From contig CAYXNP010000003.1 of NCBI GenBank assembly GCA_964466575.1, positions 21,543-85,542 on the forward strand: a stretch of 64,000 bases of DNA. Reading direction: 5' to 3'. Below are positions 21,717 through 57,677 of the stretch, one piece after another. Position 1 is the first letter of the stretch. Every line of letters starts with the position of its first letter. The notes beneath the pieces are model-generated. The model ran no database searches. It was not told the origin of the DNA and saw nothing but the letters and a program-made list of their open reading frames with translations. Position numbers and translations under genes: made by a program. The stretch comes from Candidatus Woesearchaeota archaeon. Lineage in GTDB: Archaea; Nanobdellota; Nanobdellia; Pacearchaeales; GW2011-AR1.

Positions 21717-22121
21717 ATGGTATTTGAAATAATTTTAATCTTAGCATTTATTGGGTATTTGCTTTCAGCTTATGCGTTTTATATTGAAAAGAGAAAGGAG
21801 AAAGAAGAACGTTATAAAGCAGTTTGTGATATTGGTGAACATGCTTCTTGTACAAAGGCGTTTACGAGCGCGTATGGAAAAATGTTTGGAATTTCAAATT
21901 CGATTTATGGAATGTTGTTTTATGTTTTGGTTTTTATTTTGGCTTTGTTGAATTTTGGAAATTATATTTTTTATTTGAGTGTTTTAAGTTTTCTTGAAAC
22001 CTTGTATCTTGCATATATTCTTTATTTTAAATTAAAGAATTTTTGTTTGATTTGCCATGGAATTTATTTAATAAATATCTTATTGCTTGTTTTTAGTTGG
22101 AAATTTGCTTTTTGGATTTAA
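21717..22121 (+). CDS. VKOR-family membrane thiol oxidoreductase (putative, second copy)
   Basis: CDIGEHASCTKAFTSAYGKMFGIS loop cysteines and a CLIC motif in a TM helix. Confidence 0.6.
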   Translation: MVFEIILILAFIGYLLSAYAFYIEKRKEKEERYKAVCDIGEHASCTKAFTSAYGKMFGISNSIYGMLFYVLVFILALLNFGNYIFYLSVLSFLETLYLAYILYFKLKNFCLICHGIYLINILLLVFSWKFAFWI

Positions 22122-22137
22122 AGATTTTAATGGAAAG

Positions 22138-22270
22138 GGCTACATTCTATGTTAAATTTTTTTGAGAGATTTTGTTTGTCATCATATGCCCACCCAAACT
22201 GTGTCCCACCCTAATATCAAACAAAATCTCTAATTTATTTGAATTGATTTTTGTAAGAGGGGATGTAGCC
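22138..22270. mobile_element. family D MITE (133 bp), TIR GGCTACAT..ATGTAGCC
   Basis: A near-identical 133-bp copy lies at 54777-54909. The internal long stem GAGAGATTTTGTTTG..CAAACAAAATCTC encloses CCCACCC..CCCACCC. Confidence 0.8.
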
Positions 22271-22814: not shown

Positions 22815-22886
<72 letters not shown>

Positions 22887-22960
22887 TTTATATTATCGAG
22901 CAAAGCGGGATAATCTTGATTCTGGATTTAAAGTCACTTAAACGCTATATCATTATAGAA

Positions 22961-23040
22961 GTCGGGGGCGAGTGATTTCACGAGTGTCGTCTCAAAACTT
23001 TGTTTGAGTGGGGTCGCGAGGTTAAATCCCTCTGCAGGCT
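22961..23040 (+). pseudogene. duplicated 3' fragment of tRNA-Thr, interrupted in the T-loop by a 52-bp family A element (22969-23020)
   Basis: GTCGGGGG + insert + GTTAAATCCCTCTGCAGGCT repeats the 3' end of the intact gene, which lies 74 bp upstream. Confidence 0.8.
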
Positions 23041-24003: not shown

Positions 24004-24066
24004 AAAGATGAATGAGAAAAAGGGTTTTTAAAGTTAGTGGATTGATTTAATTTGAATGGTCCTACG

Positions 24067-24198
24067 ACAACTCGGCACTTCGCACACCAACCCCACACTT
24101 ACACCCTTACCACGAAATGCCTCGGAATTTGAACTTTTATCAGAAACATAGAAGTCACGCAGTTCTGAGAATTACAGATTTAACAAAGTTAAATCTGT
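24067..24198. repeat. 132-bp repeat insertion bounded by an 11-bp duplication of the tRNA-Val 3' end (ATGGTCCTACG at 24056-24066 and 24199-24209)
   Basis: The direct repeat was read directly. The insert core CCACACTTACACCCTTACCACGAAATGCCTCGG resembles 47660-47690 and 33480-33510 (reverse complement). Confidence 0.7.
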
Positions 24199-24199
24199 A

Positions 24200-24270
24200 T
24201 GGTCCTACGCAGAATTGAACTGCGGCCATATCCACGTCAAGGATACGTTCTACCATTAAACTATAGGACC
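24200..24270 (-). tRNA. tRNA-Val (anticodon GAC)
   Basis: Reverse complement GGTCCTATAGTTTAATGGTAGAACGTATCCTTGACGTGGATA.. forms a cloverleaf with T-arm CGCAG-TTCAATT-CTGCG. Confidence 0.85.
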
Positions 24271-24889: not shown

Positions 24890-25024
24890 GTGAAGAAATA
24901 TCTGCTTTTGATAGAGGATGAGAAATTGTGGGAGAAGTTTAAAGAGTTGAATAAGAAAGATATTAATTCTGAGATTATTGAGCTTATTAAAAAGAAAATA
25001 AATTTAGAGGAGAGAAAAAAATGA
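24890..25024 (+). CDS. small ribbon-helix-helix-like protein (44 aa, GTG start), first gene of the giant-protein operon
   Basis: Hand-translated VKKYLLLIEDEKLWEKFKELNKKDINSEIIELIKKKI.. (strand-helix-helix pattern). Its stop overlaps the ATG of the next gene (ATGA). Confidence 0.3.
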   Translation: MKKYLLLIEDEKLWEKFKELNKKDINSEIIELIKKKINLEERKK

Positions 25025-26901
25025 TTTCTGAGAATATTAAAAAAGGACAAGTTACAATTTTTATCATTGTTGCGATAATTCTTGTTTTTGCAGTTGTGAT
25101 TTTCTTTTTTTATAGAGAAAGCATTTTCAAAGATAAAGTTCCTGCGACAATAAGTCCTGTTTATAGCAGTTTTTTGGATTGTGTTGAAGAGGATACTTTG
25201 CTTGGAGTAGATATTCTTGGAACACAGGGAGGCTATATTTATGTTAATGAGTTAGAGTTTAGTCCTGGCAGTGCTTATATGCCTTTTTCTTCGCAGTTAG
25301 ATTTTTACGGCAACGCAGTTCCTTATTGGTATTATGTTTCTGGAAATAATATTCAGAAAGAAGAAATTCCTGCAAAATCAGATATGGAAAGAGAGCTGGA
25401 AAGATTTATTGAAGAGCAAATTGTTTTGTGTAATTTAAATTTGTATAAAGAGAACGGATACAAAATTGAGAATGGCGAGCCAAAAGTAGATGTGAAAATT
25501 AATAGCAAGAATATTGAAATTAATTTAGATATGGATTTGAATATTAGGAAGGGAGATGATAAGTATTCTGTTGCTTCGCATAAGAAAACTGTGAAGACAA
25601 ATTTTGGAAAGTTGTATGATATTGCGAGGGATGTTTATGATTATGAACAGGACACTTTGTTTTTGGAGAATTATGGAGTTGATACATTAAGGAATTATGC
25701 GCCTGTTGACGGTGTTGAGTTTTCATGCAAGCCAGAGACGTGGATTGCGTTGAATGTTTCTGAAACTTTGAAAGACGCGATTGAGGCGAACACACAGGCA
25801 TTGCGGGTTAAAGGCAAGTATTATGATTTGTCTAAAGATGGAAATAAATATTTTGTTGTTGACGTTGGCGATGATTTGTCTAAGGATTACAGAGTTAATT
25901 TTATGAATTCAAGATATTGGCCTTATGCGTTTGATGTTTCGCCGACTCAAGGAGATATTTTAATTGCGAATCCTGTTGGGAATCAAGAAGGTTTGGGAAT
26001 TTTGGGTTTTTGTTATGTGCCTTATCATTTTGTTTATGATTTGAAATATCCTGTTTTAGTTCAAGTAATGGATGAATCTGCCGACGAAGTTTTTCAATTC
26101 CCTGTTGCAGTTGTGATTCAAGGCAATAAACCAAGAGAACCTTTAGAAGGAAATGCAGCTGATTTAGGAGATGTTGAGCTTTGCCAGTATGCTAATCAAG
26201 AAGTTGAAGTCAGAACTTATAATACTAATTTAAATTCTGTTGACGCTGATATTTCTTTTAATTGTTTAGGAAGCAGGTGTAATATTGGTGAGACTTTTCA
26301 AGGAAGGCTGACAGAGTATTTTCCTCAATGTGTTAATGGATTTGTTATTGCAAAAGCTGAAGGTTATGAGACTGCGCAGTATTTGGTTTCAACTAATGTC
26401 GAGGATAGTGTGGATATTATTTTAGATAAATTGTATGAAGTTGATATTGATTTGTTAATTGACGGAAGGCCGACAAGCAAGGAAGCGATTATTTCATTTG
26501 CTGGAGATAATAAAGCCAAGACAATTATTTATCCTGAACAGAGAAGTGTTGAGTTGAGTCAGGGGTTGTATGATATTAAAGTTCAGGTTTTTGATGATTC
26601 TATTTTGACAATTGGAGCTACAACAACAAAACAGTGTTATGAAGTTCCTCGCGGTGCTGTTGGAGGATTTTTTGGAATTACAAAAGAAGAATGTGTTGAT
26701 ATTGAATATCCTGAACAAGTTGTTTCACAAGTTTTGATTGGCGGAGGAGAAGTTGAATATTTCATTTTAGAATCTGAATTAATTAACGCAAGAACAATTG
26801 AAATTGATACAGAGAGTTTGATTAAGCCAAATAGTATTGAGGCAATAAACACAAATTATAATTTATTTGAAAATAGAATTTTAGGGGTGAAGTTTAAATG
26901 A
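25021..26901 (+). CDS. secreted protein with an archaeal class III (type IV pilin-like) signal peptide
   Basis: N-terminus MISENIKKGQVTIFIIVAIILVFAVVIFFF has the KKGQ + hydrophobic-helix pattern. The rest has no recognised domain. ATGA overlap with the downstream giant gene. Confidence 0.6.
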   Translation: MISENIKKGQVTIFIIVAIILVFAVVIFFFYRESIFKDKVPATISPVYSSFLDCVEEDTLLGVDILGTQGGYIYVNELEFSPGSAYMPFSSQLDFYGNAVPYWYYVSGNNIQKEEIPAKSDMERELERFIEEQIVLCNLNLYKENGYKIENGEPKVDVKINSKNIEINLDMDLNIRKGDDKYSVASHKKTVKTNFGKLYDIARDVYDYEQDTLFLENYGVDTLRNYAPVDGVEFSCKPETWIALNVSETLKDAIEANTQALRVKGKYYDLSKDGNKYFVVDVGDDLSKDYRVNFMNSRYWPYAFDVSPTQGDILIANPVGNQEGLGILGFCYVPYHFVYDLKYPVLVQVMDESADEVFQFPVAVVIQGNKPREPLEGNAADLGDVELCQYANQEVEVRTYNTNLNSVDADISFNCLGSRCNIGETFQGRLTEYFPQCVNGFVIAKAEGYETAQYLVSTNVEDSVDIILDKLYEVDIDLLIDGRPTSKEAIISFAGDNKAKTIIYPEQRSVELSQGLYDIKVQVFDDSILTIGATTTKQCYEVPRGAVGGFFGITKEECVDIEYPEQVVSQVLIGGGEVEYFILESELINARTIEIDTESLIKPNSIEAINTNYNLFENRILGVKFK

Positions 26902-29900
26902 AATTTTCATTTGCGAAACTTACTAAGGTGCCCGAAACTCGCGACCCCACTCCTTCCCAAATATTTGAGACCCGCCCAAACGTGAAATCGCTTGCCCACC
27001 TATTTGAATCCCTAATACTAAGAAGTCCTGTTCATGATATTTCTAAGTGCCCACCCACCCCTAAATCTTCGTCCCACCCTAAATGGGTGGGTCCTGTTAG
27101 TGGAATTGCTAAGCCTATTAGTTTAACATTCATCTTGTTTTTCTTAATCGGAATTTTTATTTTGAATATAGCTTTAGTAAATTCGCAATATATTCCCCCA
27201 AGTTATCAAGCAGGTTATGGTTATGGAGGTGCGAATGATTATTGGAATTCTGCGAGTTATTCTCAAGCTCAAACTTATAGACCAGGATTAGGAACTAATT
27301 ATCCTTATTATAATTCAAATCAAAATTTGTATAGAGATCCTTATTATGGAGGAGATTATAGTTATAATAATCCTAATAGTAATTATCAATCTAGCAGTAT
27401 TTATTCTAATAGAAATCAATATTATAATTCATATTCAAACATGTATCCGACTTCATCGTATGGGAGAAATCCTTATTTATCGTCGGGATATGGGGGATAT
27501 TATCAGCCTTTTCCTTCGCAAACTTATTTACAAGGACAGGGAATTGATTTGTATAGGAATTTTGACGACGAGCAATGCGGTTTAGGACAGGATTTTTTAA
27601 TTCAGCAGGCGCCGTTTGGATGTTCGCCGAGCGTTGTTAGAAGTGATTTGTTAGAAGAACAAAATGTGCCTGTGTTTTGCCAGCTTGCTGCGACAAAATT
27701 AAATCCTTTGATTGATGTTGATGCGATTTATTCAATGGAATTTCGCCGCGATAAGAATTTTCCTGAAGATGTTGTTGGTGTTGGGTTTCATCCTGCAAGA
27801 GCTGCAGTAAGGCAAACATCTTATCTTGGCAGTTCATCTTCTTATGGAGCTAGTTTTTCCGGCAGAACAGGCAGTTTGCTTAATTCAGCTGTTATGAATA
27901 ATGTTGGCTATGCAGTTGTAGTTTTGAAACAGCAGCCAAATGAAAAAGATATGCCTGATTCGATTTCTGGAAATCTTACTGCTGTTTTAAGGTATGATGT
28001 TAAGAATGCATTTGGTGTTGGGAATGTTGAATTTGCATTGCCGCAAGTTGATGATTTATCATGGAATGAAGATTATAGGAAATATAGTTTTTGGAAAGGC
28101 AGGGGATTTTTGCGGGCCGATTTAGTTGAGCCTGACAGAGCAGTTATTTCAATAATGTCTGACCAGAATTTAAAAATTGATACTGTGAGTTTGACTGTTG
28201 GACAAACTGCTCGAGAAGTTAGAATGCCTGGATTTTATTGTTTTGCAAAAGCAGAAGTTAAGTTAGATAGAATTGGATTTCCTGATACGACTGCCCGATT
28301 AAGGATTGATAATGATTATGTTGATTTAGTCGCTGACCAAAGATTTTTAGATGATAGATGCAGGGTTCAGTTTGTTGAAAAGAATGGCTTGTCTGAATTT
28401 GCGCAGATAAGATGCAGTGAAGACGACGGTGCGACAAGATATTATGAATTTCAGAAAAGTCCGCGAGTTGTTTTAAAAATTAATGATGTGGAGGGAACTT
28501 ACAAAGTTGGAGAGCCATTGTCTTTGTTTGGAACTTCGTATTATGTTGTCAGGGCAATTGAGCAAAACGATGAAAATGGAAAGATTTCAATTGTTTTAGA
28601 TTCTTCTTTGACGCCTTATAATTATAGAAGCTATCCAAGTTTGACGTCGAGTTCGAGTTCGTATTTGTATAATAATAATTTGAGAATTGATTTAGGAGAA
28701 ACATTGGATTTGTCTGATGATAATAAAATTCAATTTTTAAGTTTGTCAGAAGGTGTAAATGAAGACTTTTCTCAAGAAAATGATGTGGATGTTGGTAATT
28801 ATAATTCTGTGTTTAAAGAGAATTATGATAATGCTATTGCTGATTATTCCAGAGTTGCAAGTGATTTTGCGAATGAGCTTATGGAACCAGGTTTTGGCGA
28901 AGCAGGGAAAACTTATGGAGAAGAAGCATTGGAGAGAGCTGCTTACTTGGCAGAGGCGACAGGACAGATATTAACAAGCAAAGAGTTTATTGATAAAATG
29001 AAAGACGAGTATGGTGAATTAGAAAATGAAAATGAGCTTCGGCTTTTGGCAGACGAGTCTTTGTTTTATTCAGAGGAAGAAACAAGCGGTGTTATGATTG
29101 ACGGAAGGTTGCATATTATTACTTTTTTAGGAGCAAGCAAACCGAGGTTAAGTGATTTTAGCGCAAAGTTTTTTGTAAAAAATACTCAAACAAATAAAGT
29201 TGATGATTTTGTTTTAGGAAAAGATGGCAGGCGAGAATTTGATAGAGGAAATAATCGGGATCAAATTATTCTTAGATATTTAGATGAATTTTCTGCTGAT
29301 ATAGATTATATCGGAGAAGAATATATTGATGCTAATTTGAGCAGAAGAAATATTTCAAGAAGGTTTACTGTTTTTAGAGACAGGCCGATTACTATTGGTA
29401 ATGGGAAATACACCCTTTCTGTTGAGAATATTAATTTTAAGAATGTTGCTTATGTAAGAATTGAGCCAAAGTTGGAAGATATTAGGACAGAGGCGAATTT
29501 TAGCATTAATATTGGAATTGAAAAACGGGCGATTAAATTGAGTCCTGAACAAACTGAAAATAGGATTAATAAAGCGAATGAGACGCTTGAAAAGTTGAAT
29601 AAGATTTCTGATGGACTTGGAAAAGTTGTGAAAGGAACAAAGGCAGCGTGTCTTGCTACTGGCGGGTTTTTGATTACAAAGAATTTCCTGCAGAATTTGG
29701 GAGGCAAGCAAATCGCAAGACAGCAAATTATGAGAAGCCAGGGAGGCTGGCAAGAGTTTTGCAGACAGGCAATTGCAGATAATGATGGAAATTATGCAAG
29801 CATGGATGATTGTTTTAATAAAAATGCAGATGCAATTGACGCCGACGTTGAAACACTTAATGGATTTATACAAAAGCAAAACGATGAGATAAAAGCTGCA

Positions 29901-32816
29901 AAAGGAACCCAAGGAGCAAGTATTTTTGGAAATGATTATTATGATAATGATGAATATGTAAAAAATTATCTTCCTGGTGTAAAGAGTGATATAGAAGCTT
30001 ATGGAAAAGATATTGTTGATCCAAATAATCCTGATAGGAAAATTACTTCTGAACGGTTGGCAAGCATATTAGAACAGAAATATGAAAAAGAGGGAGGTTA
30101 TAGTATTGAACAAGCAAGAGATGTCCAATTGTATGCGCGGATTTTGAATTCAGAGGAAGTTTCTGCTGATTCAAGATTATATAAAATGACTCAAAAGAAT
30201 TTATATGATACTGCTGCCTTGATGGATGAGACAACTCAAGGATTAATTGATGCTGATACATTGCAAAATGATTTTGCAAGCAAGGGATTTCCTAATATTA
30301 ATATTCATTCTTATGGCAAAAAGAATTCTGTTACTGGAATTTATAGCGGAGGAACTGTTTTGGGAAGTAATATTAAAGGAGTTGAATTAACTGAAGAAGA
30401 AAAGAAAAAGAGTTTTGCATTTGAGCCATTTTATTATGGGAATGAAAAATATGTTGCGCTTTTAGATGGTTCTGGAGGAAATAGATATAATATTAAAAAT
30501 GTTTACAAATTAGGTGATGTTGGTGCTGGGAATGTGATTAATGTTGCCAGCGCTTCCGACGAGGCTACGCTTAAACAACAGTTTAGAGGATTTGAGAAAT
30601 TTGACGTGAATTCTTATAATAATGTTTACAAAAGTCCTGAAGCAAGATTTTATGAAGCTGAGCCTTACAAAGGATTTCCAGCTGTTGTTCCATTTGATAC
30701 GACAAAAGGATGGTATGCTGCAACTAAGCAGACAATTGCTGCGTTTGGAAGTTTAGGTGCGTTTGATGATTCAGGAAGGATTTCTAGTTTCTGGCTTTGT
30801 AATGTTGGCAGTAATGGGCTGGAAGAATTTAATACTGGTTTTGGCGACGATAATTGTCAGCAGATTAATATTGGAACTAACCAGCCTTATGGAGAAATTT
30901 TAGGATTACCGGTTGGTGAGGCGTCAAGACTTGTTGGAAGAGCAATTAGGGCATTGGAATCTGCTTCGAGTCAAAGGCAGGGCAATGTAAATATAAAATA
31001 TATTTCAATTGAAGGACAGAGAATAAAAGTCGGCAATCCTGCTGCGAATATTCCGCAGATGCAATGCCAGGATTTTATGTCGCCTAAGGATTGTCATTTG
31101 TTGTTTAATGTCTGCGACCCTGTGATTTGTCCGTCGTCAAGGTGCAACCTTGGAGGAAATTATAATGTGCCGAATGTTATTCAATCTGGAATAATTGGAA
31201 GCATCGCATTGTGTTTGCCAAATTATAAGGAGGGAATTGCTGTTCCTGTTTGTTTGAGTGGTGTGAATGCTGGTGTGCAAAGTCTTCAAAGTATTTATCA
31301 AAATTATCATGATTGTCTGAGAGAAAGTTTAGATACTGGAAGACAGACTGGAATTTGCGACGAGATTCATAGTATTTATTTGTGCGATTTCTTCTGGCAG
31401 CAGGCGACGCCGATTGCGAAGATTGGAATTCCAAAATTAATTGGAAGTTTGCTTGGAGAAGGAACCAGAGGAGGAGGAGAATATCTTGGAGTTCAGAGCG
31501 CTTGGGAAGGAGCTTCTAATTCAATGGATTATTTTACAAAGAGTTATGCAGAAAATTCTTACAATGCATTTAAAGTTAGAAGCACTGATGAAGTTGGAAC
31601 TCAAGTTTGCAAGAATTTTGCTTCATTAAGATTTCCTGATGTGATTGATAATTTGATTGAGCCTGATTCGCCGCCGCAATATAACGCGTGGTTTGATGAA
31701 ATTCCTTTGACAACAGCGACGGTTCCTGCAACTTCGCAGTATAAAGTGTTTTATCATATTTTTGGCGGAAAAGATTTTGGAAGTTATTATACTGTTTATT
31801 TGAAATCTGCTTCCGGAACTTCATTTTTTGAAACTCCTGGAAGATTAGTTGTTGCTTCAGGATATATTGACAGAGGTGGTTATGCGTCAGATACTTTGGA
31901 TTTTACTCAGTCTGCGGGATATAGTGAGTTGTGTGTTAGTGTTAATGCGCAGGAAGAGTGCGGGTTCCAGAAAGTTTCGACTTCGTTTGCTTTGGATTAT
32001 TTGAGCAACAAATATCTTAATGAGCAGGCGTCAGCGACGGGAATTATGTCTGAGAGTGAATGTGTTTCTGGAAGTTCTAGTTTGTACTCGTTGGCTCAGC
32101 CGAATTTACAACAAGGTGTTGATGAAGTTATTAATCCTCAACTTTATAATTATGGAATTGTGAGAGTGTGTTCAACTGATAACCCTGGAAATAGAAATGA
32201 TCCAAAGACCGGGACTGATGCTTCAAGATGGCGTGTTGTTGGAAACTGCGACGGAAGTGTTGGAAAAGTTCAGTGTTGGGTTGATACTCGAAGTGTTAAA
32301 GAAAATATTGATATTAAATATTTAGAAAAAGGCGCATTAGATAGTATTGATGCGAATTATATGGATTTCTTAAACGGAACTGAAGGTTTTATGGATCAAG
32401 GAGAAGTTCAATCTCAAATAGAATCAATAGATAAAGGAACACTTAGTGATAATGAAAAGATAAATACTATTACTGATATTTTGGATAAGGTTGTGTTTAG
32501 TCATCAGAAAGCTTATTTGCTGTTGTTAAGAGGAGATGCTTATAAGAATCTTGCAATTCAAGCATATACTGGTATTAAGAGTAAATTAAGAGAGAAAGAT
32601 TCTGTTGTGCCTGTTGAAAATCCAAGGCCAGAAGATAAACCTAATTCTTTGCCTGTTGTTGAAGTGCCTGTAAGTGAGACAGATAAAAAAGATTCGAGTG
32701 AGCAACAAAAGATTGATGAAGAAAATGCGAGAAAGGCAGAAGAGGCAAGGATAAGGGCAGATGAAAAAGAAAGATTGTTGAGAGAAATTAATCAAGGTGT
32801 TGGCGCAGTTGCTTGA
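26898..32816 (+). CDS. giant (1972 aa) membrane-anchored extracellular protein
   Basis: Uninterrupted ORF with a TM helix at aa 74-96, a Tyr/Asn/Ser/Gly low-complexity region at aa 97-215, a Cys-rich region around aa 1380-1560, and a K/E-rich coiled-coil tail. An alternative GTG start at 27087 would exclude the repeat-derived N-terminus. Confidence 0.75.
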   Translation: MKFSFAKLTKVPETRDPTPSQIFETRPNVKSLAHLFESLILRSPVHDISKCPPTPKSSSHPKWVGPVSGIAKPISLTFILFFLIGIFILNIALVNSQYIPPSYQAGYGYGGANDYWNSASYSQAQTYRPGLGTNYPYYNSNQNLYRDPYYGGDYSYNNPNSNYQSSSIYSNRNQYYNSYSNMYPTSSYGRNPYLSSGYGGYYQPFPSQTYLQGQGIDLYRNFDDEQCGLGQDFLIQQAPFGCSPSVVRSDLLEEQNVPVFCQLAATKLNPLIDVDAIYSMEFRRDKNFPEDVVGVGFHPARAAVRQTSYLGSSSSYGASFSGRTGSLLNSAVMNNVGYAVVVLKQQPNEKDMPDSISGNLTAVLRYDVKNAFGVGNVEFALPQVDDLSWNEDYRKYSFWKGRGFLRADLVEPDRAVISIMSDQNLKIDTVSLTVGQTAREVRMPGFYCFAKAEVKLDRIGFPDTTARLRIDNDYVDLVADQRFLDDRCRVQFVEKNGLSEFAQIRCSEDDGATRYYEFQKSPRVVLKINDVEGTYKVGEPLSLFGTSYYVVRAIEQNDENGKISIVLDSSLTPYNYRSYPSLTSSSSSYLYNNNLRIDLGETLDLSDDNKIQFLSLSEGVNEDFSQENDVDVGNYNSVFKENYDNAIADYSRVASDFANELMEPGFGEAGKTYGEEALERAAYLAEATGQILTSKEFIDKMKDEYGELENENELRLLADESLFYSEEETSGVMIDGRLHIITFLGASKPRLSDFSAKFFVKNTQTNKVDDFVLGKDGRREFDRGNNRDQIILRYLDEFSADIDYIGEEYIDANLSRRNISRRFTVFRDRPITIGNGKYTLSVENINFKNVAYVRIEPKLEDIRTEANFSINIGIEKRAIKLSPEQTENRINKANETLEKLNKISDGLGKVVKGTKAACLATGGFLITKNFLQNLGGKQIARQQIMRSQGGWQEFCRQAIADNDGNYASMDDCFNKNADAIDADVETLNGFIQKQNDEIKAAKGTQGASIFGNDYYDNDEYVKNYLPGVKSDIEAYGKDIVDPNNPDRKITSERLASILEQKYEKEGGYSIEQARDVQLYARILNSEEVSADSRLYKMTQKNLYDTAALMDETTQGLIDADTLQNDFASKGFPNINIHSYGKKNSVTGIYSGGTVLGSNIKGVELTEEEKKKSFAFEPFYYGNEKYVALLDGSGGNRYNIKNVYKLGDVGAGNVINVASASDEATLKQQFRGFEKFDVNSYNNVYKSPEARFYEAEPYKGFPAVVPFDTTKGWYAATKQTIAAFGSLGAFDDSGRISSFWLCNVGSNGLEEFNTGFGDDNCQQINIGTNQPYGEILGLPVGEASRLVGRAIRALESASSQRQGNVNIKYISIEGQRIKVGNPAANIPQMQCQDFMSPKDCHLLFNVCDPVICPSSRCNLGGNYNVPNVIQSGIIGSIALCLPNYKEGIAVPVCLSGVNAGVQSLQSIYQNYHDCLRESLDTGRQTGICDEIHSIYLCDFFWQQATPIAKIGIPKLIGSLLGEGTRGGGEYLGVQSAWEGASNSMDYFTKSYAENSYNAFKVRSTDEVGTQVCKNFASLRFPDVIDNLIEPDSPPQYNAWFDEIPLTTATVPATSQYKVFYHIFGGKDFGSYYTVYLKSASGTSFFETPGRLVVASGYIDRGGYASDTLDFTQSAGYSELCVSVNAQEECGFQKVSTSFALDYLSNKYLNEQASATGIMSESECVSGSSSLYSLAQPNLQQGVDEVINPQLYNYGIVRVCSTDNPGNRNDPKTGTDASRWRVVGNCDGSVGKVQCWVDTRSVKENIDIKYLEKGALDSIDANYMDFLNGTEGFMDQGEVQSQIESIDKGTLSDNEKINTITDILDKVVFSHQKAYLLLLRGDAYKNLAIQAYTGIKSKLREKDSVVPVENPRPEDKPNSLPVVEVPVSETDKKDSSEQQKIDEENARKAEEARIRADEKERLLREINQGVGAVA
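26925..27091 (+). repeat. family A-long element (26925-27017) plus C-tract core (27042-27091) at the 5' end of the giant ORF
   Basis: The 93-nt block differs at 6 positions (manual alignment) from 48542-48634 inside GlyRS, and is read in the same frame. Confidence 0.8.
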
Positions 32817-32837
32817 TTCTAAATAAAATTAGCGGCC

Positions 32838-33062
32838 CGCTCCAAAGTCGCTCGCGTTATTTATTGCAGCTCGCGACCTCACTCGAACAAAGTTTTGAGG
32901 CAACACTCGTGAAATCGCTCATCAAAACCGACTTTGTCAAGTTCTTCGCTTAAAGAAATTATGAACCCAAAAATTCTGAAATATTTTGTTATCAGGTTTT
33001 CTCGATGAATAATCGTGTCAAAAGGTCGATTATAAGTTAATAATTCTCGCGACTTTGGAGCG
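32838..33062. mobile_element. MITE-like element with 14-bp TIRs CGCTCCAAAGTCGC/GCGACTTTGGAGCG, carrying a nested family A core (32870-32921)
   Basis: TIRs at 32838-32851 and 33049-33062. Internal modules are shared with 54960-55260 and 18190-18290. Confidence 0.7.
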
Positions 33063-33171
33063 AGCAACTTCACGAGAACTAATTTGAAATATTAATAGCG
33101 AGTGGGGTTAGGAGTAGAGTGATTTTTAGGATTCTAAAGATTTTTATATGAATAATTTCTGGTATTTCTAT

Positions 33172-33314
33172 GCGGGAATGCCGGATGTCGCTTATATACT
33201 TAAGCTCGTCCATCACCCCAAATATTGAAGCGGGAATGCCGGAGAACTCGCGACCTCACTCGAACAAAGTTTTGAGGCGAGACTCGTGAAATCGCTCGGG
33301 TCAAACGGGCGAAG
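33172..33314 (+). pseudogene. two partial 5' copies of tRNA-Leu, the second split in the D-loop by a family A element (33247-33298)
   Basis: GCGGGAATGCCGGA occurs at 33172. GCGGGAATGCCGGAG + insert + GGTCAAACGGGCGAAG occurs at 33230-33314. Both are compared with the intact gene at 33337. Confidence 0.8.
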
Positions 33315-33336
33315 AAGTTTTCTCATTCACCGAATG

Positions 33337-33421
33337 CGGGAATGCCGGAGTGGTCAAACGGGCGAGGTTTAGGACCTCGTGTGCTTAGTGCCTACCTAGG
33401 TTCGAATCCTAGTTCCCGCAT
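33337..33421 (+). tRNA. tRNA-Leu (anticodon TAG), long variable arm
   Basis: Acceptor GCGGGAA/TTCCCGC, anticodon arm CGAGG-TTTAGGA-CCTCG, T-arm CTAGG-TTCGAAT-CCTAG. Confidence 0.85.
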
Positions 33422-33479
33422 CATGCAATCAGAGATTGCATTAATTAAATTGGGATGAGAACCGACGGTTCGACGAGCA

Positions 33480-33685
33480 ATTTCGTGTTAAGGGCGTAAG
33501 TGGAAAGAGGTGGCGAGTGATTTCGCGAAAGTAAAAATTCAAATATTTATGGGTGTGGCAGTGAGCGGGGTCGCGAGTAGAGATTGCGAGCATCCTAGTT
33601 CCCGCATTACTATTGAACGAAGTGAAATAGTATGTGAATTATAATTCTTAATAGAGGAGTGGGTTAGGGTTTCCTAGTTCTCGCA
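33480..33685. repeat. repeat block with reverse-oriented family A copies and two partial 3' copies of tRNA-Leu (33594-33606, 33673-33685)
   Basis: CGAGTGATTTCGCG..GGGGTCGCGAG at 33514-33577. ATCCTAGTTCCCGCAT and TCCTAGTTCTCGCAT repeat the tRNA 3' end. Confidence 0.7.
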
Positions 33686-33739
33686 TAAACACTTTTCTAA
33701 TGCAATAATCTATAAAAACACTCTAATCAATTTTTAATT

Positions 33740-34060
33740 ATGAGTTTAGATGATAAAACTAAGAAAAGAATCTTTGAAGGAAGTAATGGTAATCGAGAGG
33801 TTACAGTTGTCACGACTAGATTGACTGAAGAAGAGGCAAGAGAAATGTTTCTATATAGGCCATCTAGTAAATATTCTGAATCACGATTTGGAGGAAATAC
33901 ATTAGTAGATGATGCGTGTTTATTATTAAATGAACTTGCTCATAGATGTGAAATGTGCAGAGCCCCTACAAAAAAAGAATATTTGATAGAAAATGTTTGT
34001 CCTGATTGTGACGGTCGTTCAGAGTATAATGGAACTGACCCGAGGGCATCTGTTAGGTAA
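33740..34060 (+). CDS. hypothetical zinc-ribbon protein
   Basis: CEMC...CPDC motif; otherwise an orphan. Confidence 0.45.
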   Translation: MSLDDKTKKRIFEGSNGNREVTVVTTRLTEEEAREMFLYRPSSKYSESRFGGNTLVDDACLLLNELAHRCEMCRAPTKKEYLIENVCPDCDGRSEYNGTDPRASVR

Positions 34061-34174
34061 TTTTAAAGTTAATCAAATTTTGAATTTATTAAGATGATTG
34101 CAGGATTATTTGTTAATGATTTAGGATTATTAGATATTAATATGCGAACAGAGTGAGCAGGTATTATTTTAGAA

Positions 34175-35110
34175 TTATTTTTCTTTTCTCTTATTTTTAT
34201 TTTCAATTTCTTTGATTTTCAATTTGTCTTCTAATTGAAGTTTGTCAATTAGTTCTTTGTAACGATTTCTAATTGTTACTTCTGTGATTCCTGCAATGTC
34301 TGCTACTTCACGCTGCGTCTTTTTTTCGTCATTCATTAGCGCAGCGACGTAAAGTGCGGCTGCTGCGATTCCTGCAGGGCCTCTTCCACTTGTTAGTTCA
34401 ACATCTTCTGCTCTTTTTAAAACTTTGAGAGCATCGTTTTGAGTTTTAGGAGAAAGTTTTAGAACTGAACTGAAACGCGAGATGTAATCTTTTGGAGAAG
34501 ATTGTTTTACAGTTATTCCAAGTTTTCTTATTATGAATCTGTAAGTTCTTCCGATTTCTTTTCTTTCGACGTCGGAAGCAGTTGCCATTTCGTCTAATGT
34601 TCTTGGAATATTATAACTTCGACAAGCCGCATATAAACACGCTGCGATAACTGATTCCATACTTCTGCCACGAACTAGCCCTCTTTGAAGAACGTAATTG
34701 TAAATTCTTGAAGCTTCATCACGAACAACATTTGGAAGATTTAGATAAGAGGCGATTACTCTTAATTCTGCCATTGCTAGTCTTAGATTTCTTTCAATAG
34801 ATGTAGAAACTCTTTCCTGCCATTTTTTTAATCTTAGAAATTTACGGGTTTGGCCAGGTTCTAATTTGTATATATCTGAAATTTCTCCAACATTTGTTAT
34901 AAGTCCTTTGTCAAATTTTTGGATTGACATTGGTGCTCCACCACGGCCTTTTTTTTCTGATTTGTCGAATTTTCCTTGGGGGTCTTGACCTGTGTCCACC
35001 ATTTTTTCTTCCACGACTAGACCACAATCATTACATATTACTTCACCATGATGTTCGTCATAAGTAAGATGTATACTTCCACATTCAGGACATTTTCGTA
35101 TAAAAGCCAT
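34175..35110 (-). CDS. tfb: transcription initiation factor IIB (TFB)
   Basis: N-terminal zinc ribbon CPECGS..VICNDCGLVV, two cyclin-fold repeats, and ..ITEVTIRNRYKEL. Confidence 0.95.
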   Translation of the reverse strand: MAFIRKCPECGSIHLTYDEHHGEVICNDCGLVVEEKMVDTGQDPQGKFDKSEKKGRGGAPMSIQKFDKGLITNVGEISDIYKLEPGQTRKFLRLKKWQERVSTSIERNLRLAMAELRVIASYLNLPNVVRDEASRIYNYVLQRGLVRGRSMESVIAACLYAACRSYNIPRTLDEMATASDVERKEIGRTYRFIIRKLGITVKQSSPKDYISRFSSVLKLSPKTQNDALKVLKRAEDVELTSGRGPAGIAAAALYVAALMNDEKKTQREVADIAGITEVTIRNRYKELIDKLQLEDKLKIKEIENKNKRKEK

Positions 35111-39470: not shown

Positions 39471-39591
39471 GAAAATAGCTGCTCGTAAATTCGCAGATTA
39501 ATATTATGTTAATTCTAAAACCAGATAAATTTAGTTATAATTAATTAATTCACGAGCTTGCGAGTGGTATTTAAAAAAAGCGGAGACCGGG

Positions 39592-39678
39592 AAAGTTTGT
39601 TGTCCTACTTACATCAGGGGCGATTTGGAAGATTAGTGAAACAACTCGTCGAACCCGTCGGGTTCTCGTCCTGTATAG
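39592..39678. repeat. 87-bp insertion bounded by an 18-bp duplication of the tRNA-Cys 3' end (AAAAAGCGGAGACCGGGA at 39574-39591 and 39679-39696)
   Basis: The direct repeat was read directly. The insert contains the CGACGGGTTCGACGAG-type inverted motif. Confidence 0.75.
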
Positions 39679-39682
39679 AAAA

Positions 39683-39823
39683 AGCGGAGACCGGGACTCG
39701 AACCCGGGAAAATCTGCTAACTGCAATCAGCCTTGAGCCTATTTCTAGGGAGAGACTGTGAAGGAGAACCGTTAGGTTCTTCTCATCTGCAGGCAGACGC
39801 AGTAGCCGCTGTGCCATCTCCGC
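39683..39823 (-). tRNA. tRNA-Cys (anticodon GCA) with a 68-nt intron (39719-39786) at 37/38
   Basis: Acceptor GCGGAGA/TCTCCGC, T-arm CCGGG-TTCGAGT-CCCGG. The anticodon stem TCTGC/GCAGA is separated by the intron. Confidence 0.75.
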
Positions 39824-48370: not shown

Positions 48371-50158
48371 ATGGCATTTATTGTTAAGAAAAAAATTTCA
48401 GGAAAAGATTATTATTATCTTCGGGAAAGCAAGCGAGAAGGCAAGAAAGTGAAATCTATTTTTTTAGCTTATTTAGGCAAGGATAAGAAAGAGGCTGAGA
48501 AGAAAATGAAAGAGATTTTGGAGAAACGAGAATCAGGCCTTAAAGTGCCCGAAACTCGCGACCCCACTCCTTCCCAAATATTTGAGACCCGTCCAAACGT
48601 GAAATCGCTCGCCCACCCATCTGAATCCCTAAAACATATCGAAGCGGTTGATCAGAAACAATCAAAACCGACAAGAGAAAATATTACAATAGAAGAGCTT
48701 TCAAATTTTTGTAAAAGGAAAGGTTTTGTATTCCGGAGTTCAGATATTTATGGAGGGTATTCTGGGTTTTGGGATTTTGGGCCATTGGGAGTTGAATTGT
48801 TTAATAATATTAAGAATGATTGGTGGAATTTTTTTATTCGGCGACGTGAAGATGTTGTTGGAATTGAAGCTTCGATAATTTCTCATCCAAGAACTTGGAA
48901 AGCGTCTGGGCATATTGAAAATTTTAATGATGTTTTTGTTAAATGCAAGAAATGTGGGAAGACAAATAAGTTAGATGAGAATGAACTTGGAAAGGTTAAG
49001 TGTGATTCGTGCGGCGGCGAATATGAGGGCAAGGGTAAATTTAATTTGATGTTTAAGACAAATGTTGGACCGTCAGGAGTTGGCGAGCAAGATGATTCTG
49101 TTGCGTATCTTAGAGGGGAAACTGCCCAAGGAATGTTCATGGATTTTAAACTTGTTCAACAAACTTCTCGAATGCAATTACCATTTGGAATAGCTCAAAT
49201 TGGAAGATGTTTTAGAAATGAAATTTCTCCGCGAGACTTTTTATTTAGAAGCAGAGAATTTCATATTGGTGAGTTTGAATTTTTTATCCATCCAGATGAA
49301 AAGAAATGCGAGTTGTTAGATAAGAAACATTTAGATGTTAAATTTAGATTTCTTAGCGAGGAGTCTCAAAAATCAGATTCAGCGTCGGAGCTTAAGGAAG
49401 TTACAATTAAAGAAATATTTGATAAAAAAAAGTTAGATGGGTGGCATGCTTATTGGCTGGCAGAGCAGATTATTTGGTTTAAGAAACTTGGGCTTGATGA
49501 GATTAAAATTCGGGAGCATACAAAGGAAGAGTTAAGTCATTATAGTTCAGCTACGTTTGATATTGATTATGAATATCCTTTTGGAAGCAAGGAAGTTGCT
49601 GGAATTGCTAATCGCGGCCAATTTGATTTGATTCAACACCAAAAAGAAAGCAAGGAAAGTTTTGAAATTTTCGACGAGAAAACAAAAAATAAAGTTGTTC
49701 CAAGAGTTATTGAGCCGACTTTTGGAATGGAAAGAGTTTTTCTTGCTTTGTTGACTAAAGCATATACTTTTGATTCTGAACGAGATAATGTTGTTTTGAA
49801 ATTGCCTCCAAGATTGGCGCCAATTAAAGCAGCAGTTTTTCCAATTGTAAAAAAGCCAGAGTTTGAAAAGATTTCAGAAGAAATTGTAAAAGATTTGAAA
49901 AAATATTTTAATGTTGTTTATGATAGAAGCGGAAGTATTGGTAGAAGATATTCGCGGAATGATGAAATTGGAACACCTTATTGTATAACTATCGACGAGA
50001 AATCTGAGACATTAAAATATGTTACAATTAGAAATCGTGATGACACAAAACAGATTAGGGTTAAGATTAAAAATTTGTCAGAGATTTTAAAAAAATTAAT
50101 TAATGACGAAATTGAATTTGAGAAAGCAGGCAAGATAGTGAAGACAAGAGTTAAGTGA
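48371..50158 (+). CDS. glyS: glycyl-tRNA synthetase (archaeal/eukaryotic dimeric type) with a ~105-aa N-terminal extension that includes a repeat insertion
   Basis: RKGFVFRSSDIYGGYSGFWDFGPLGVEL, RGETAQGMF, FRNEISPR and EPTFGMERV, plus an anticodon-binding C-terminus. ATG at 48371 (the ORF track starts at GTG 48359). Confidence 0.9.
   Translation: MAFIVKKKISGKDYYYLRESKREGKKVKSIFLAYLGKDKKEAEKKMKEILEKRESGLKVPETRDPTPSQIFETRPNVKSLAHPSESLKHIEAVDQKQSKPTRENITIEELSNFCKRKGFVFRSSDIYGGYSGFWDFGPLGVELFNNIKNDWWNFFIRRREDVVGIEASIISHPRTWKASGHIENFNDVFVKCKKCGKTNKLDENELGKVKCDSCGGEYEGKGKFNLMFKTNVGPSGVGEQDDSVAYLRGETAQGMFMDFKLVQQTSRMQLPFGIAQIGRCFRNEISPRDFLFRSREFHIGEFEFFIHPDEKKCELLDKKHLDVKFRFLSEESQKSDSASELKEVTIKEIFDKKKLDGWHAYWLAEQIIWFKKLGLDEIKIREHTKEELSHYSSATFDIDYEYPFGSKEVAGIANRGQFDLIQHQKESKESFEIFDEKTKNKVVPRVIEPTFGMERVFLALLTKAYTFDSERDNVVLKLPPRLAPIKAAVFPIVKKPEFEKISEEIVKDLKKYFNVVYDRSGSIGRRYSRNDEIGTPYCITIDEKSETLKYVTIRNRDDTKQIRVKIKNLSEILKKLINDEIEFEKAGKIVKTRVK
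48542..48634 (+). repeat. family A-long element lying in-frame inside the GlyRS N-terminal extension
   Basis: 93 nt with 6 mismatches versus 26925-27017. It encodes KVPETRDPTPSQIFETRPNVKSLAHP in both genes. Confidence 0.85.
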
Positions 50159-52189: not shown

Positions 52190-52209
52190 CTCTTACTTTT
52201 CTTAATTTT

Positions 52210-52281
52210 GGCTGCATAGCTCAGCGTTAGAGTATCTGTCTCATGAGCAGAGGGTCCCGGGTTAAACTCCCGGTGTAGCCA
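52210..52281 (+). tRNA. tRNA with CAT anticodon (elongator Met or Ile2)
   Basis: Acceptor GGCTGCA/TGTAGCC, anticodon arm TCTGT-CTCATGA-GCAGA, T-arm CCGGG-TTAAACT-CCCGG. Confidence 0.8.
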
Positions 52282-52971
52282 TTAATTACTCTTTGATTGA
52301 ATGAAATTTTGATATTTCTTTTCGTGTTTAGGGTTTACAAATCCAATTTTTTCATGAAAAAGAATTAAATTGTCTATACCATTAAATTGAAATCTATATT
52401 TATCTTGAACATTCCATCTTAATTCTTGTTTTATTCTTTTACATTTATACACATGTCCTTGTAATCCTTCCTCTGATAGAAAATTATATATTTGTTCAAT
52501 TAATTTCTTATGAATAACATGAGCTTCTAATCTTGGATAGAGTTTATTAGGATTTCTTGTTAAAACTAATGAACCATCTGTTGCAAAAAAGCCTTGAATT
52601 ATGAATTTCAATAAATTATCTTTATAAAATTTTTCTGGAATAATTAAGTCTTTTCCTTTCTTTCCTATGGGAAATCCAAAAGAATTTATTTTATTAAATA
52701 AGATTTTATCACAAAAGTTTAATTCAATTGTTCCCTTTTTTGGTCTTTGTTTAATGTTAATATTTTTTCCTCTTAAGGATATTGTTAAAGGTAATACTAT
52801 TTCTTTAAAGAATTCTTGATCATCATAATAATTACAAGTTATTGATATGGCATATCCTATGCTTCCATATTTACTTTTGTAATGAGATAGACACCCATCA
52901 CCCAGCATTATTCCATAAAATAGAGCAAATTTCTCATCGTCGTTAAGTTTTGTTAAGAGATTATTTTCCAC
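52282..52971 (-). CDS. free-standing double-motif LAGLIDADG homing endonuclease
   Basis: Two LAGLIDADG motifs: FALFYGIMLGDGCL and IIQGFFATDGSLV. Its stop codon abuts the 3' end of the tRNA. Confidence 0.8.
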   Translation of the reverse strand: MENNLLTKLNDDEKFALFYGIMLGDGCLSHYKSKYGSIGYAISITCNYYDDQEFFKEIVLPLTISLRGKNINIKQRPKKGTIELNFCDKILFNKINSFGFPIGKKGKDLIIPEKFYKDNLLKFIIQGFFATDGSLVLTRNPNKLYPRLEAHVIHKKLIEQIYNFLSEEGLQGHVYKCKRIKQELRWNVQDKYRFQFNGIDNLILFHEKIGFVNPKHEKKYQNFIQSKSN

Positions 52972-54557: not shown

Positions 54558-54776
54558 TTTCCTCCTTACATTTTTATGTATTAAAGGCTAGGTTAATTAG
54601 GGCTTAGAATTCTTTTATTGTTTGATGAATAAAATGTGATAGAATTAAAAGCCCAGTATGTTAATACTTGGCTTTTGAAATCACAGATACGAATTTCTTA
54701 TAGGAACTAAAACTCATATGTGATTTACTCATGTTTTTTAGAAGAGGTTGGAGTTTAAATAATTTTTGGAAATGCA

Positions 54777-54909
54777 GGCTACATCCCAAATTAAGTTTTC
54801 TTGAGAGATTTTGTTTGTTATCATATGCCCACCCAAACTGCGTCCCACCCTAATACCAAACAAAATATCTGATTTAATTAAATTGATTTTTGTAATGTGG
54901 GATGTAGCC
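54777..54909. mobile_element. family D MITE (133 bp), second copy
   Basis: Same length, TIRs and core as 22138-22270. Confidence 0.8.
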
Positions 54910-57378: not shown

Positions 57379-57677
57379 TATTTGTATTTTTACATCAAGA
57401 TGCAGAAGCATCGATGTTTGCCAAACTTCGTTTAATTATAAATTAAGGAAAGAAAGATATTTAAAGTTTGACTTATATCTATTTGAGTAAAATGAATACT
57501 AACAATAATAAATTTTATATGGAATTTAACAAGTTGTTAGTTGGGATTCTCTCCTGCAAGATTTTGCAATAATTTTTGTCTGACCTTGCGTTATTAATTT
57601 TTAAGTAAGGTTGGACTCATTATTGACTATGTCGTCGGTTAGAGAATTCTATATAAAATTGTAAGGAGGAAAATAAA

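Follow-up and report, generated by a model that had tools for sequence, protein, structure and literature searches.

The window considered here, that is, the whole 64-kb stretch of contig CAYXNP010000003.1 from a Candidatus Woesearchaeota archaeon, contains an intact tRNA-Leu(TAG) gene enclosed between partial copies of its own two ends. At least four layers of such copies are nested round the functional gene, and a fifth event is seen as one hairpin module lying within another at 33514–33578; an earlier note on this sequence had counted at least four insertion and duplication events, and the count stands. In three of the four layers, namely F5b, F3a and, in degenerate form, F3b, the loop part of the partial copy is occupied by a hairpin of one family, denoted family A. 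The nest is one instance of a lineage-wide class of miniature tRNA-associated elements built on an intron-like hairpin, and the family-A repeats interleaved with the tRNA fragments are not unrelated passengers. As to the origin of the nest, we see about an even chance that it was left by five or more successive insertions of miniature non-coding elements bearing tRNA ends, each of which rebuilt an intact gene.

The nest round tRNA-Leu(TAG)

The tRNA-Leu(TAG) gene occupies 33336–33420 on the forward strand, belongs to class II and has no intron (ARAGORN; Rfam RF00005, 57.5 bits); the earlier note had correctly taken it for intact but placed it one base off, at 33337–33421. The two upstream partial copies comprise its first 14–31 nt, the two downstream ones its last 15–16 nt, and all four are in direct orientation. 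The first 14 nt of the gene, GCGGGAATGCCGGA, occur exactly at 33172, 33230 and 33336, with no further match at up to two mismatches across the 64-kb window; the chance expectation is 0.09, and none of 100 shuffles gives three matches. The last 14 nt, TCCTAGTTCCCGCA, are found exactly at 33407 and 33593, with one mismatch at 33672, and nowhere else in the window, the chance expectation being 0.15 and three matches again appearing in none of 100 shuffles. With their flanks, the 3' repeats extend to ATGCGGGAATGCCGGA and ATCCTAGTTCCCGCAT (16 nt each). Thus a tRNA scan and an alignment of the fragments, both called for by the earlier note, find them significantly similar to tRNA-Leu, beyond what shuffling produces. 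The fragments span tRNA positions 1–32 and about 50–76 only, the anticodon arm being absent.

The family-A module, or core, is about 55 nt long, with conserved ends (CGAGC ... GCGAGC/T) around a 9-bp stem. From an alignment of 31 modules from metagenome loci and five family-A copies of the window (36 sequences), a covariance model, R1, was built. The stem cells are paired in 99.7% of cases in the 36 sequences, compensatory changes are seen in five of the nine pairs, and G.U pairs are abundant. None of 500 shuffles matches the observed values, and slid registers are only 31–48% paired; hence the fold of the module is strand-specific and is kept by selection. R1 has 16 matches in the window, many of them far from tRNA genes, versus five in 776 kb of relatives, thus the hairpin family has expanded in this genome. 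The window family-A copies score 44–50 bits on the model. Judging by the nested copy and by the 16 copies in 64 kb, the module appears to be mobile in its own right. Copies situated away from tRNA genes have no flanking duplication or target motif in common, and the left flanks of the cores vary (TTCGA, TTTGA, GGTGG, GGGGG, GGAGA, ATTC). At the feet of the hairpin, tandem G.A pairs hint at a possible K-turn.

Upstream of the gene, the outermost fragment F5a (33170–33185; AT followed by tRNA positions 1–14, 16 of 16 identical) is presumed to be the original start of tRNA-Leu. The filler behind it (33186–33229) is a homologue of the 5' insert that the relative L008 has at its tRNA-Leu(TAG), about 27 of 39 positions being identical (loci and contigs from other assemblies are cited by such L numbers); no hairpin is detectable in this oldest 5' layer. 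The second copy, F5b, starts with positions 1–15 (33230–33244, exact), gives way to a 54-nt insert (33245–33298) and resumes with GGTCAAACGGGCGAAG at 33299–33314, which corresponds to positions 17–32 with one mismatch. All these features are on the forward strand, whereas the core within the D-loop of F5b (33246–33298) is on the reverse one, antisense to the tRNA (R1 46.3 bits, E 7e-11). The upstream half of the earlier description, with two 5' fragments starting at 33172 and 33230 and the second split in the D-loop by a family-A element, is thereby confirmed. The spacer AAGTTTTCTCATTCACCGAAT (33315–33335, forward strand) between F5b and the intact gene has no TATA-like box; its AGTTTTC is able to pair with GAGAACT at the junction of F5b and the core, and the motif is also present in L041, L080 and L088.

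On the downstream side, where all features are again on the forward strand, the gene is followed by a trailing hairpin, ATGCAATC-AGA-GATTGCAT (33423–33441), which also occurs in 3' elements of the Leu isoacceptors of L041, L116, L125 and L143. Then comes the B hairpin, GGGATGAGAACC-GAC-GGTTCGA (33452–33473), whose 3' arm duplicates the start of the T-loop. The outer core (33474–33591, composed of 33474–33513 and 33579–33591) is sense to the tRNA and interrupts the T-loop of the 3' partial copy between positions 58 and 59; with the nested core (33514–33578; R1 39.6 bits, E 6e-9) taken out, it shares about 87% identity with the core of L128, an unrelated contig. The partial copy is completed by F3a, ATCCTAGTTCCCGCAT (33592–33607), running from tRNA position 59 to the discriminator plus T, with 16 of 16 positions identical. 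The older 3' layer has a second post-tRNA hairpin, ACTATT-GAACGAAGTGA-AATAGT (33609–33631), of the type seen behind the window tRNA-Thr and the tRNA-Gln of L097, L100 and L136, a degenerate remnant of the 3' half of a core (33632–33670, below the R1 threshold; 33637–33668 is 72% identical to 33081–33112, the 3' half of the core at 33061–33115), and finally the outermost fragment F3b, TTCCTAGTTCTCGCAT (33671–33686, 14 of 16 identical), presumed to be the original end of the gene. Both 3' fragments had been noticed earlier. The reverse-oriented family-A modules that the earlier note set between them are a different matter: a module of this orientation does exist at 33514–33578, but it is situated between the tRNA and the first 3' fragment, and only the degenerate 3' half (33637–33668) separates the two. 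Alignment of 33687–34200 for a degenerate third 3' fragment past the neighbouring open reading frame (ORF), or for an inverted relic of an ancestral tRNA, gave scores below those of shuffled controls.

The orientation of the cores follows a strict rule. Every core on the 3' side is sense to its tRNA. On the 5' side, the inserts of the window, L088 and L104 match R1 on the antisense strand, and in those of L041 and L080 the core termini and the hairpin are present only as the reverse complement.

A TATA-like box, TTTTTATAT (33141–33149, forward strand), precedes the outermost 5' fragment by about 22 nt and is presumed, from its position, to be the promoter of the whole unit. When such boxes are scored at −38 to −16, they are seen in front of 14 of 18 outer 5' copies versus four of the 18 intact tRNAs behind them; for undecorated tRNAs the count is 141 out of 260, against a background of 24 out of 260. 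A box that precedes the outer copies and seldom the intact genes indicates that the gene originally started at the outer 5' copy. The 5' insertions have thus separated tRNA-Leu from its box, and the claim that each event left a functional copy holds for the tRNA itself but not for its link to the promoter. By this reasoning, transcription of the live gene must presumably start at about 33171 and pass through a 164-nt leader, which would then be trimmed.

Related introns, other tRNA genes and the neighbourhood

The hairpin is also met as an intron. The anticodon-loop intron of tRNA-Gln(CTG) in L135 (Rfam tRNA 50.8 bits, 60-nt insert) is an end-to-end R1 match, the ends of the match being the exon–intron junctions. 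In L017, the intron is in the anticodon loop of tRNA-Leu(TAG), which adjoins TFB and is the orthologue of the window gene; here the match is 56 nt long versus the 57-nt intron, and the ends agree within 1–2 nt. These full-length matches place family A in a family that includes true archaeal tRNA introns. In the folded L135 both junctions are in bulges about 4 bp apart, and one re-pairing yields the canonical helix-bulge-helix-bulge-helix; L017 comes near the bulge-helix-bulge motif, with three of the four central pairs formed (folding and manual re-pairing). The family-A copies of the window sit in partial gene copies or intergenic DNA and not within a complete tRNA. At the D-loop and T-loop copies the bulge-helix-bulge motif could not be drawn, and the 5' ones are antisense, so these copies are probably not spliced.

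One may go further and suppose that the family-A hairpin is the DNA-level mobile form of a bulge-helix-bulge intron. It would target the anticodon loop and the T-loop in the sense orientation and the D-loop in the antisense one, that is, the 3'-proximal loop of the cloverleaf read from either strand; in the anticodon loop it would become an ordinary intron, whereas after entry into the D-loop or T-loop survival would need a rebuilt gene end, with nested partial copies as the outcome. We offer this as a tentative idea, possible though on balance rather unlikely. If true, it would provide a direct, observable mechanism for the gain of tRNA introns and a first step toward split tRNA genes.

L017 (DATJPO010000053.1), L038 and L040 are labelled Omnitrophota, Patescibacteria or Bacillota, while their TFB is about 90% identical to that of the window, and L017 also has archaeal intron-bearing tRNAs. 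The three contigs are probably mis-binned.

The 3' architecture is present at three other tRNA genes of the window. Behind tRNA-Thr (22815–22886) it occupies 22961–23040 on the forward strand and comprises a T-stem copy, GTCGGGGG, a sense core (22969–23020) and GTTAAATCCCTCTGCAGGCT. For tRNA-Val (24200–24270, reverse strand) it lies at 24057–24135, also on the reverse strand, with the T-loop copy AGTTCAAATTC, a core at 24070–24124 and then TGTCGTAGGACCA. The elements of tRNA-Cys (39683–39823, reverse strand) span 39575–39667 on the same strand and consist of a B hairpin (39645–39667), a decayed core and the 3' copy TCCCGGTCTCCGCTTTTT at 39575–39592. The tRNA-Leu nest is the richest instance in the window. 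Hence the picture of tRNA-Leu as the insertion hot spot is only partly right: the nested copies are true and the gene is also hit in relatives, but tRNA-Thr, tRNA-Val, tRNA-Cys and, in related DPANN (Pacearchaeota-like) contigs, dozens of tRNA genes with many specificities are affected alike.

Further hairpins were noticed at these genes. The long intron of tRNA-Cys starts with a hairpin (GAUGAGAAGAACCUAACGGUUCUC) resembling the B hairpin. Small hairpins with a conserved loop (GAGCAAAGCGA or GAACGAAGTGA) stand right after tRNA 3' ends or their copies at 22893–22917 and 33609–33631 and in L097, L100 and L136.

Among 80 related genomes, partial end copies are found near about two dozen of 202 tRNAs. 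They are always in direct orientation, the 5' copies upstream and the 3' copies downstream. In nearly all of these genomes tRNA-Leu(TAG) adjoins TFB, yet the orthologous locus is decorated patchily across the 80 species. The tRNA-Leu(TAG) of L004, L023, L041, L053, L069 and L075 has gene-bearing or non-coding inserts within 3'-end repeats, while that of L026 is bare, its flanks being too diverged from the window to align. The orientation of the gene relative to TFB is inverted in the window (33336–35110) and in five relatives (L026, L077, L049, L080, L002). Two larger inserts also deserve mention: a 1.2-kb two-gene cassette situated at tRNA-Leu in opposite orientations in L023 (7159–8400) and L004 (3866–5135), and a 3.5-kb insert with a P-type cation ATPase at tRNA-Gln of L097 (2440–6006). 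Both have 3'-end repeats and no integrase.

To scan metagenomes, we used as the query the B hairpin (GAGAACC-loop-GGTTCGACGAG) seen behind tRNA-Leu and tRNA-Cys. It yielded 64 loci, all with 27–39% GC, in which the B motif is always behind a tRNA 3' end and a copy of the last 13–18 nt of the same tRNA comes 41–184 nt after it, most often at about 55 nt, except where the contig stops before that point. The tRNAs concerned belong to at least ten amino-acid specificities (ARAGORN calls). The order on the 3' side is intact tRNA, often a small hairpin, a copy of the T-arm start, the module of about 55 nt, and the remainder of the T-arm with the acceptor strand to the discriminator plus T; the T-arm-start copy often pairs with an upstream complement, forming the B hairpin. 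The order on the 5' side is TATA-like box, tRNA positions 1 to 13–21, insert, the remainder of the D-arm, a short spacer and the intact tRNA. Tandem arrays are observed in L113, L125 and L118 (three units each) and in L116 and L104 (two each), and in L100, L087 and L130 the duplication reaches 5–17 nt beyond the tRNA end. The 3' copies of L093, L102 and L108 have a 1-nt deletion where the sister L100 is perfect; the mismatched 3' copies in L088, L096, L097 and L131 show the commonest variant of other elements, and L109 is chimeric. In viral contigs, the B-hairpin and family-A patterns gave only chance matches in high-GC coding DNA, or none.

Several other repeats were noted in the window. Upstream of the promoter there is a further family-A core (32869–32921, reverse strand, R1 49.6 bits) with no tRNA fragment attached and, immediately before the promoter, a core-like hairpin (33061–33115, forward strand, 33.8 bits). 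A 27-nt inverted repeat (32835–32861 and 33039–33065, 81% complementary) encloses about 230 bp with a family-A copy, which points to a composite repeat immediately before the tRNA-Leu promoter. Cores lie antisense within the predicted 5' ends of three long ORFs (26937–26994, 48554–48611 and 3702–3758, all on the reverse strand), one of which encodes a class II aminoacyl-tRNA synthetase; the true start codons may lie further down, or the coding sequence may tolerate the element. The 95-nt block 26924–27018 recurs at 48541–48635 with 93.7% identity. Another repeat family of 163 nt (22112–22270 versus 54748–54909, 84.7% identical) is unrelated to the core hairpin.

No Rfam family matches the leader, the trailer or the hairpin at gathering or relaxed thresholds. 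Among known RNA and DNA elements, a C/D-box sRNA was rejected because the sequence has no CUGA boxes, and an integron attC site because it has no R'/R'' boxes. A TnpB-type guide RNA, made of a scaffold and a 16-nt "guide" corresponding to the 3' fragment near a TTCGA-like motif, is attractive geometrically but was rejected as well, since the scaffold is too small, TnpB was not found, and a constant target motif is lacking.

The ORF next to the nest (33740–34060, forward strand) lies outside the last tRNA repeat and encodes a Zn-ribbon-like protein of 106 amino acids with two CxxC pairs. The ORF had been recognised before, but described as an orphan; in metagenome-assembled genomes of DPANN archaea it has 46 matches in all, namely itself and 45 homologues with 56–78% identity. 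Their neighbours differ between genomes, and none of the 80 syntenic TFB loci contains a member of the family. The ORF is an accessory gene whose location varies, tied to the nest by adjacency alone.

The host is a DPANN archaeon. The window, whose sequence recurs in groundwater metagenomes, has 29–38% G+C and eight tRNA genes, three of them with long introns. It encodes TFB (34175–35110, reverse strand), ribosomal proteins S8e and S3Ae, SRP54, FtsY, tRNase Z and the tRNA splicing endonuclease EndA (56857–57411, reverse strand). The closest TFB genes, at 85–95% amino-acid identity, are in metagenome-assembled genomes labelled Pacearchaeota, Woesearchaeota or Nanoarchaeota; these relatives, together with TFB itself, S8e, S3Ae, EndA and the intron-bearing tRNAs, rule out an organelle origin. 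Other genes of the window have features of their own. An ORF with a LAGLIDADG-like domain (52282–52971, reverse strand) ends exactly at the end of tRNA-Met (52209–52282, forward strand) and may be a homing-endonuclease relic next to the tRNA. The leucyl-tRNA synthetase (57961–61053, forward strand) has an inserted serine-hydrolase or alpha-beta-hydrolase domain at about residues 282–440. The adjacent ORFs at 25021–26901 (626 amino acids) and 26898–32816 (1972 amino acids), both on the forward strand, have no Pfam match, and the longer one stops shortly before the repeat-rich tRNA-Leu region.

Possible histories of the nest

Under the history of serial insertions, the inserting unit would have three parts: a copy of a tRNA end (the last 13–27 nt from the T-arm on, or the first 13–31 nt through the D-arm), a hairpin of about 55 nt inside the loop of this copy, sense in the T-loop and antisense in the D-loop, and a short spacer, often itself a hairpin. 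In a circular or otherwise free form, the unit would undergo Campbell-type recombination with the chromosomal gene, the crossover falling in the terminal 13–16 nt and the recombinase presumably acting in trans. An intact tRNA would thereby be rebuilt inside and the old gene end displaced outward, so that a 5' insertion would carry the promoter out with the 5' end, and a 3' insertion the downstream flank with the 3' end. Repeated on both sides, such events would produce the order F5a, F5b, tRNA, F3a, F3b, the outermost copies being the oldest. The scheme reproduces both architectures, the promoter position and the nesting order. The tRNA segment may travel with the element, as suggested by the mismatched 3' copies that show the commonest variant, the chimeric L109 and the tandem arrays. 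The outer copies are relics: deletions and mismatches in the 3' copies, the patchy decoration of the locus and the missing anticodon arm argue against a split gene or an obligatory role in processing.

A number of observations weigh against this history. Pfam finds no integrase, transposase, Cas1 or reverse transcriptase among 35 scanned ORFs of the window, nor were these enzymes found in the gene-bearing inserts of L023, L004 and L097; a search for integrases within distant tRNA-end repeats in 150 loci also turned up nothing but cargo lacking recombinases. Neither a free or circular form nor any polymorphism between empty and filled sites was seen, all assemblies of the population being identical. 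Units of 80–190 bp are unusually small as substrates of site-specific recombination. The T-loop junctions vary (after position 53, 58, 61 or 62), as do the lengths of the tRNA-end repeats (12–30 nt, mode 15 nt), which fits poorly with one sequence-specific recombinase. The pattern used to collect the 64 metagenome loci included the core start, thus the core is present in them by construction. Finally, hairpin-free repeats from the T-loop to the 3' end exist in L004, L023, L057, L063, L069, L075 and L097, so duplication and hairpin insertion may be separate steps.

The missing recombinase and free form, the varied junctions and the hairpin-free repeats make a two-step history the main rival. 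It supposes that a plasmid, virus or cassette first duplicates the tRNA end as an att site in the usual integrase manner, that the insert is then mostly lost, and that the mobile hairpin enters the dead loop copy, since in a live gene it would be lethal unless at a spliceable anticodon-loop position. Indeed, hairpin-free 3' repeats starting at T-arm positions 52–58 bound inserts from 34 nt to 3.5 kb, some with genes (L069, L075, L057, L063, L023, L004, L097), and the hairpin moves independently, as seen from the nested copy at 33514–33578 and from 16 window copies, many of them far from tRNAs. Moreover, the units of L125 have a common fragment, spacer and B hairpin but differing cores, and the D-loop site of tRNA-Leu contains differing core subfamilies between identical flanks in the window, L041 and L080. 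However, on many unrelated tRNAs the 3' unit is remarkably uniform in size and in the succession of its parts (hairpin, B hairpin, core, fragment), and none of the loci examined, a small and biased sample, has a B hairpin that leads into an uninterrupted T-loop. Nor do the flanks of cores away from tRNAs have a shared target motif that would explain the strong targeting of loops. We regard the two-step history as unlikely, but as one to be taken seriously.

Another way to obtain modules in the outer copies and none in the inner gene is RNA-mediated overwriting. Here the ancestral gene would have had intron-like inserts in its D-loop and T-loop, and a cDNA of the spliced tRNA, or an intron-free allele, would have recombined into its middle, leaving the old ends as shells. 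The copies do start and stop within 1–2 nt of the mature tRNA ends, and relatives have this module as a true intron. On the other hand, the antisense 5' modules could not be spliced from a sense transcript, and some duplications run 5–17 nt beyond the tRNA end (L100, L087, L130). Two layers per side and the tandem arrays require repeated events, and no reverse transcriptase is seen among the scanned ORFs of the window. We consider overwriting improbable.

The mirror-oriented cores also raise the possibility of an rRNA-like processing stem round the tRNA. The antisense core of the leader and the sense core of the trailer would pair into a long stem of the pre-tRNA, as in archaeal rRNA operons or in the pairing of split-tRNA leaders, and the fragments would serve as a signal for processing or quality control. 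The duplex of the leader 33245–33298 with the trailer 33514–33578 has a predicted energy of −54 kcal/mol, compared with −24.6 ± 4.2 for shuffles and about −31 for the sum of the separate hairpins; the centroid fold of the whole unit contains leader–trailer pairs, being otherwise uninformative, the stem of the hairpin is under structural selection, and the fixed mirror orientation makes leader and trailer complementary automatically. Yet most tRNAs are decorated on one side only, and the two sides of L041 bear different core subfamilies. The 3' fragments tolerate deletions and mismatches, fragments without the anticodon arm cannot complete a tRNA, and the structure is patchily present at the orthologous tRNA-Leu of the 80 species, with L026 bare. 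This functional role seems to us very improbable.

An assembly or chimera artefact, which might be suspected as short-read unitigs end at the repeats, is practically negligible: region 32800–34200 is tiled by unitig-like contigs from three groundwater samples, with every junction covered by overlapping unitigs and zero differences, two independent assemblies (L149 and L151) are 100% identical across the whole locus, two more (L150 and L152), which start inside it, are identical over the covered part, and an equal architecture is found in unrelated assemblies of other organisms. Four independently assembled contigs contain the ORF at 33740–34060, and none of them differs from the window. In this population the arrangement is real and fixed, and strain variability, for which the earlier note proposed to test the flanking genes, is not observed at the locus. 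The tRNA-Leu locus was not found in the only three metatranscriptomes, which are tiny (SOLiD).

Whichever history applies, one sequence family plays three roles: it is an anticodon-loop intron, an insert in dead D-loop and T-loop copies beside live tRNAs, and a dispersed repeat. The gain of archaeal tRNA introns at odd positions and the splitting of tRNA genes are an old open question, and the main proposals, integration of mobile elements and intron transposition, rest on few thermophile loci. With many tRNA genes, a strict orientation rule and a selected stem, the link between intron mobility, integration and gene fragmentation becomes testable in one lineage of ultrasmall archaea. There are practical consequences as well. 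Partial tRNA copies of this kind can mislead tRNA annotation and the prediction of genome islands in DPANN genomes, and the affected tRNAs must come from long leaders, which bears on the need of reduced organisms for RNase P.

Comparison with known systems

No description of this element class was found in the searchable literature. Its closest counterparts are the archaeal viruses and plasmids that integrate into tRNA genes by integrases of the SSV1 and pNOB8 types, duplicating the segment from the T-loop to the 3' end as att. Such integration in archaea is summarised in PMC3293823 and PMC8371274. As in these elements, the insert lies between direct repeats of a tRNA end, an intact tRNA is rebuilt, both ends are used, and tandem accretion is possible. 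The inserts here, however, are non-coding, 44–190 nt long and without an ORF, no recombinase is found in the 35 scanned window ORFs or the inserts of L023, L004 and L097, and the repeats are 12–30 nt versus about 44 nt. Further, one family stands behind many tRNA specificities, each time with the matching tRNA end, and the hairpin interrupts the loop part of the outer copy.

In Caldiarchaeum subterraneum, tRNA-Thr shows a 5' tRNA fragment and intron gain via an integrating element (Sugahara et al. 2012, PMC3293823), and disrupted and split tRNA genes have been suggested to arise through integration of this type (PMC3293823). The Campbell-type model considered above may be said to echo that proposal for tRNA-Thr (PMC3293823). 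There, too, a 5' fragment lies upstream of the intact tRNA on the same strand, and integration is tied to an intron-like sequence in the att region. The Caldiarchaeum insert is 1.8 kb long, has a recombinase, and its intron ends up in the functional gene, whereas the inserts described here are tiny, the module remains in the dead outer copy, and the pattern extends across the lineage and to both sides of the gene.

Transposition of tRNA introns in the Thermoproteales was reportedly described by Fujishima et al. in 2010. It is reviewed in PMC4090602 and PMC4033280. The likeness is in one family of short hairpins at the D-loop, anticodon loop and T-loop of different tRNAs, which implies mobility. 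The Thermoproteales copies are spliced introns in functional genes, and here this is true only of the anticodon-loop copies of L017 and L135; those of the window are in partial gene copies or intergenic DNA, the 5' ones being antisense.

Casposons produce target duplications of 14–15 bp at tRNA 3' ends. The tRNA 3' end is targeted in our case as well, the duplication length is similar (mode 15 nt), and tandem arrays share a repeat. Unlike casposons, the elements have duplications ranging from 12 to 30 nt, no casposon-type terminal inverted repeats, a size of about 100 nt and insertions at 5' ends too, and the 35 scanned ORFs of the window include no Cas1 or casposon polymerase gene.

The split tRNA genes of Nanoarchaeum equitans have complementary leader sequences. 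They are treated in PMC3218864. This archaeon belongs to a broadly related lineage, and in both cases end pieces stand beside mutually complementary GC-rich sequence. In contrast to split or permuted tRNAs, there is an intact gene between the pieces here, and the pieces themselves (positions 1–32 and about 50–76) cannot make a tRNA.

Among small transposons, a miniature inverted-repeat transposable element is likewise a short non-coding unit with many dispersed copies (16 model matches in 64 kb), but the fold of the present module is strand-specific, with G.U pairs, copies away from tRNAs have no common flanking duplication, and the tRNA repeats are 12–30 nt long. The single-strand transposons of the IS200/IS605 type also have a strand-specific hairpin stem with G.T or G.U pairs; here the left flanks vary, with no one conserved target of 4–5 nt, and no TnpA or TnpB domain occurs in the scanned window ORFs. 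On the whole, the nest is a variant of two known phenomena, the duplication of att sites at tRNA genes and the transposition of tRNA introns, and not a new category.

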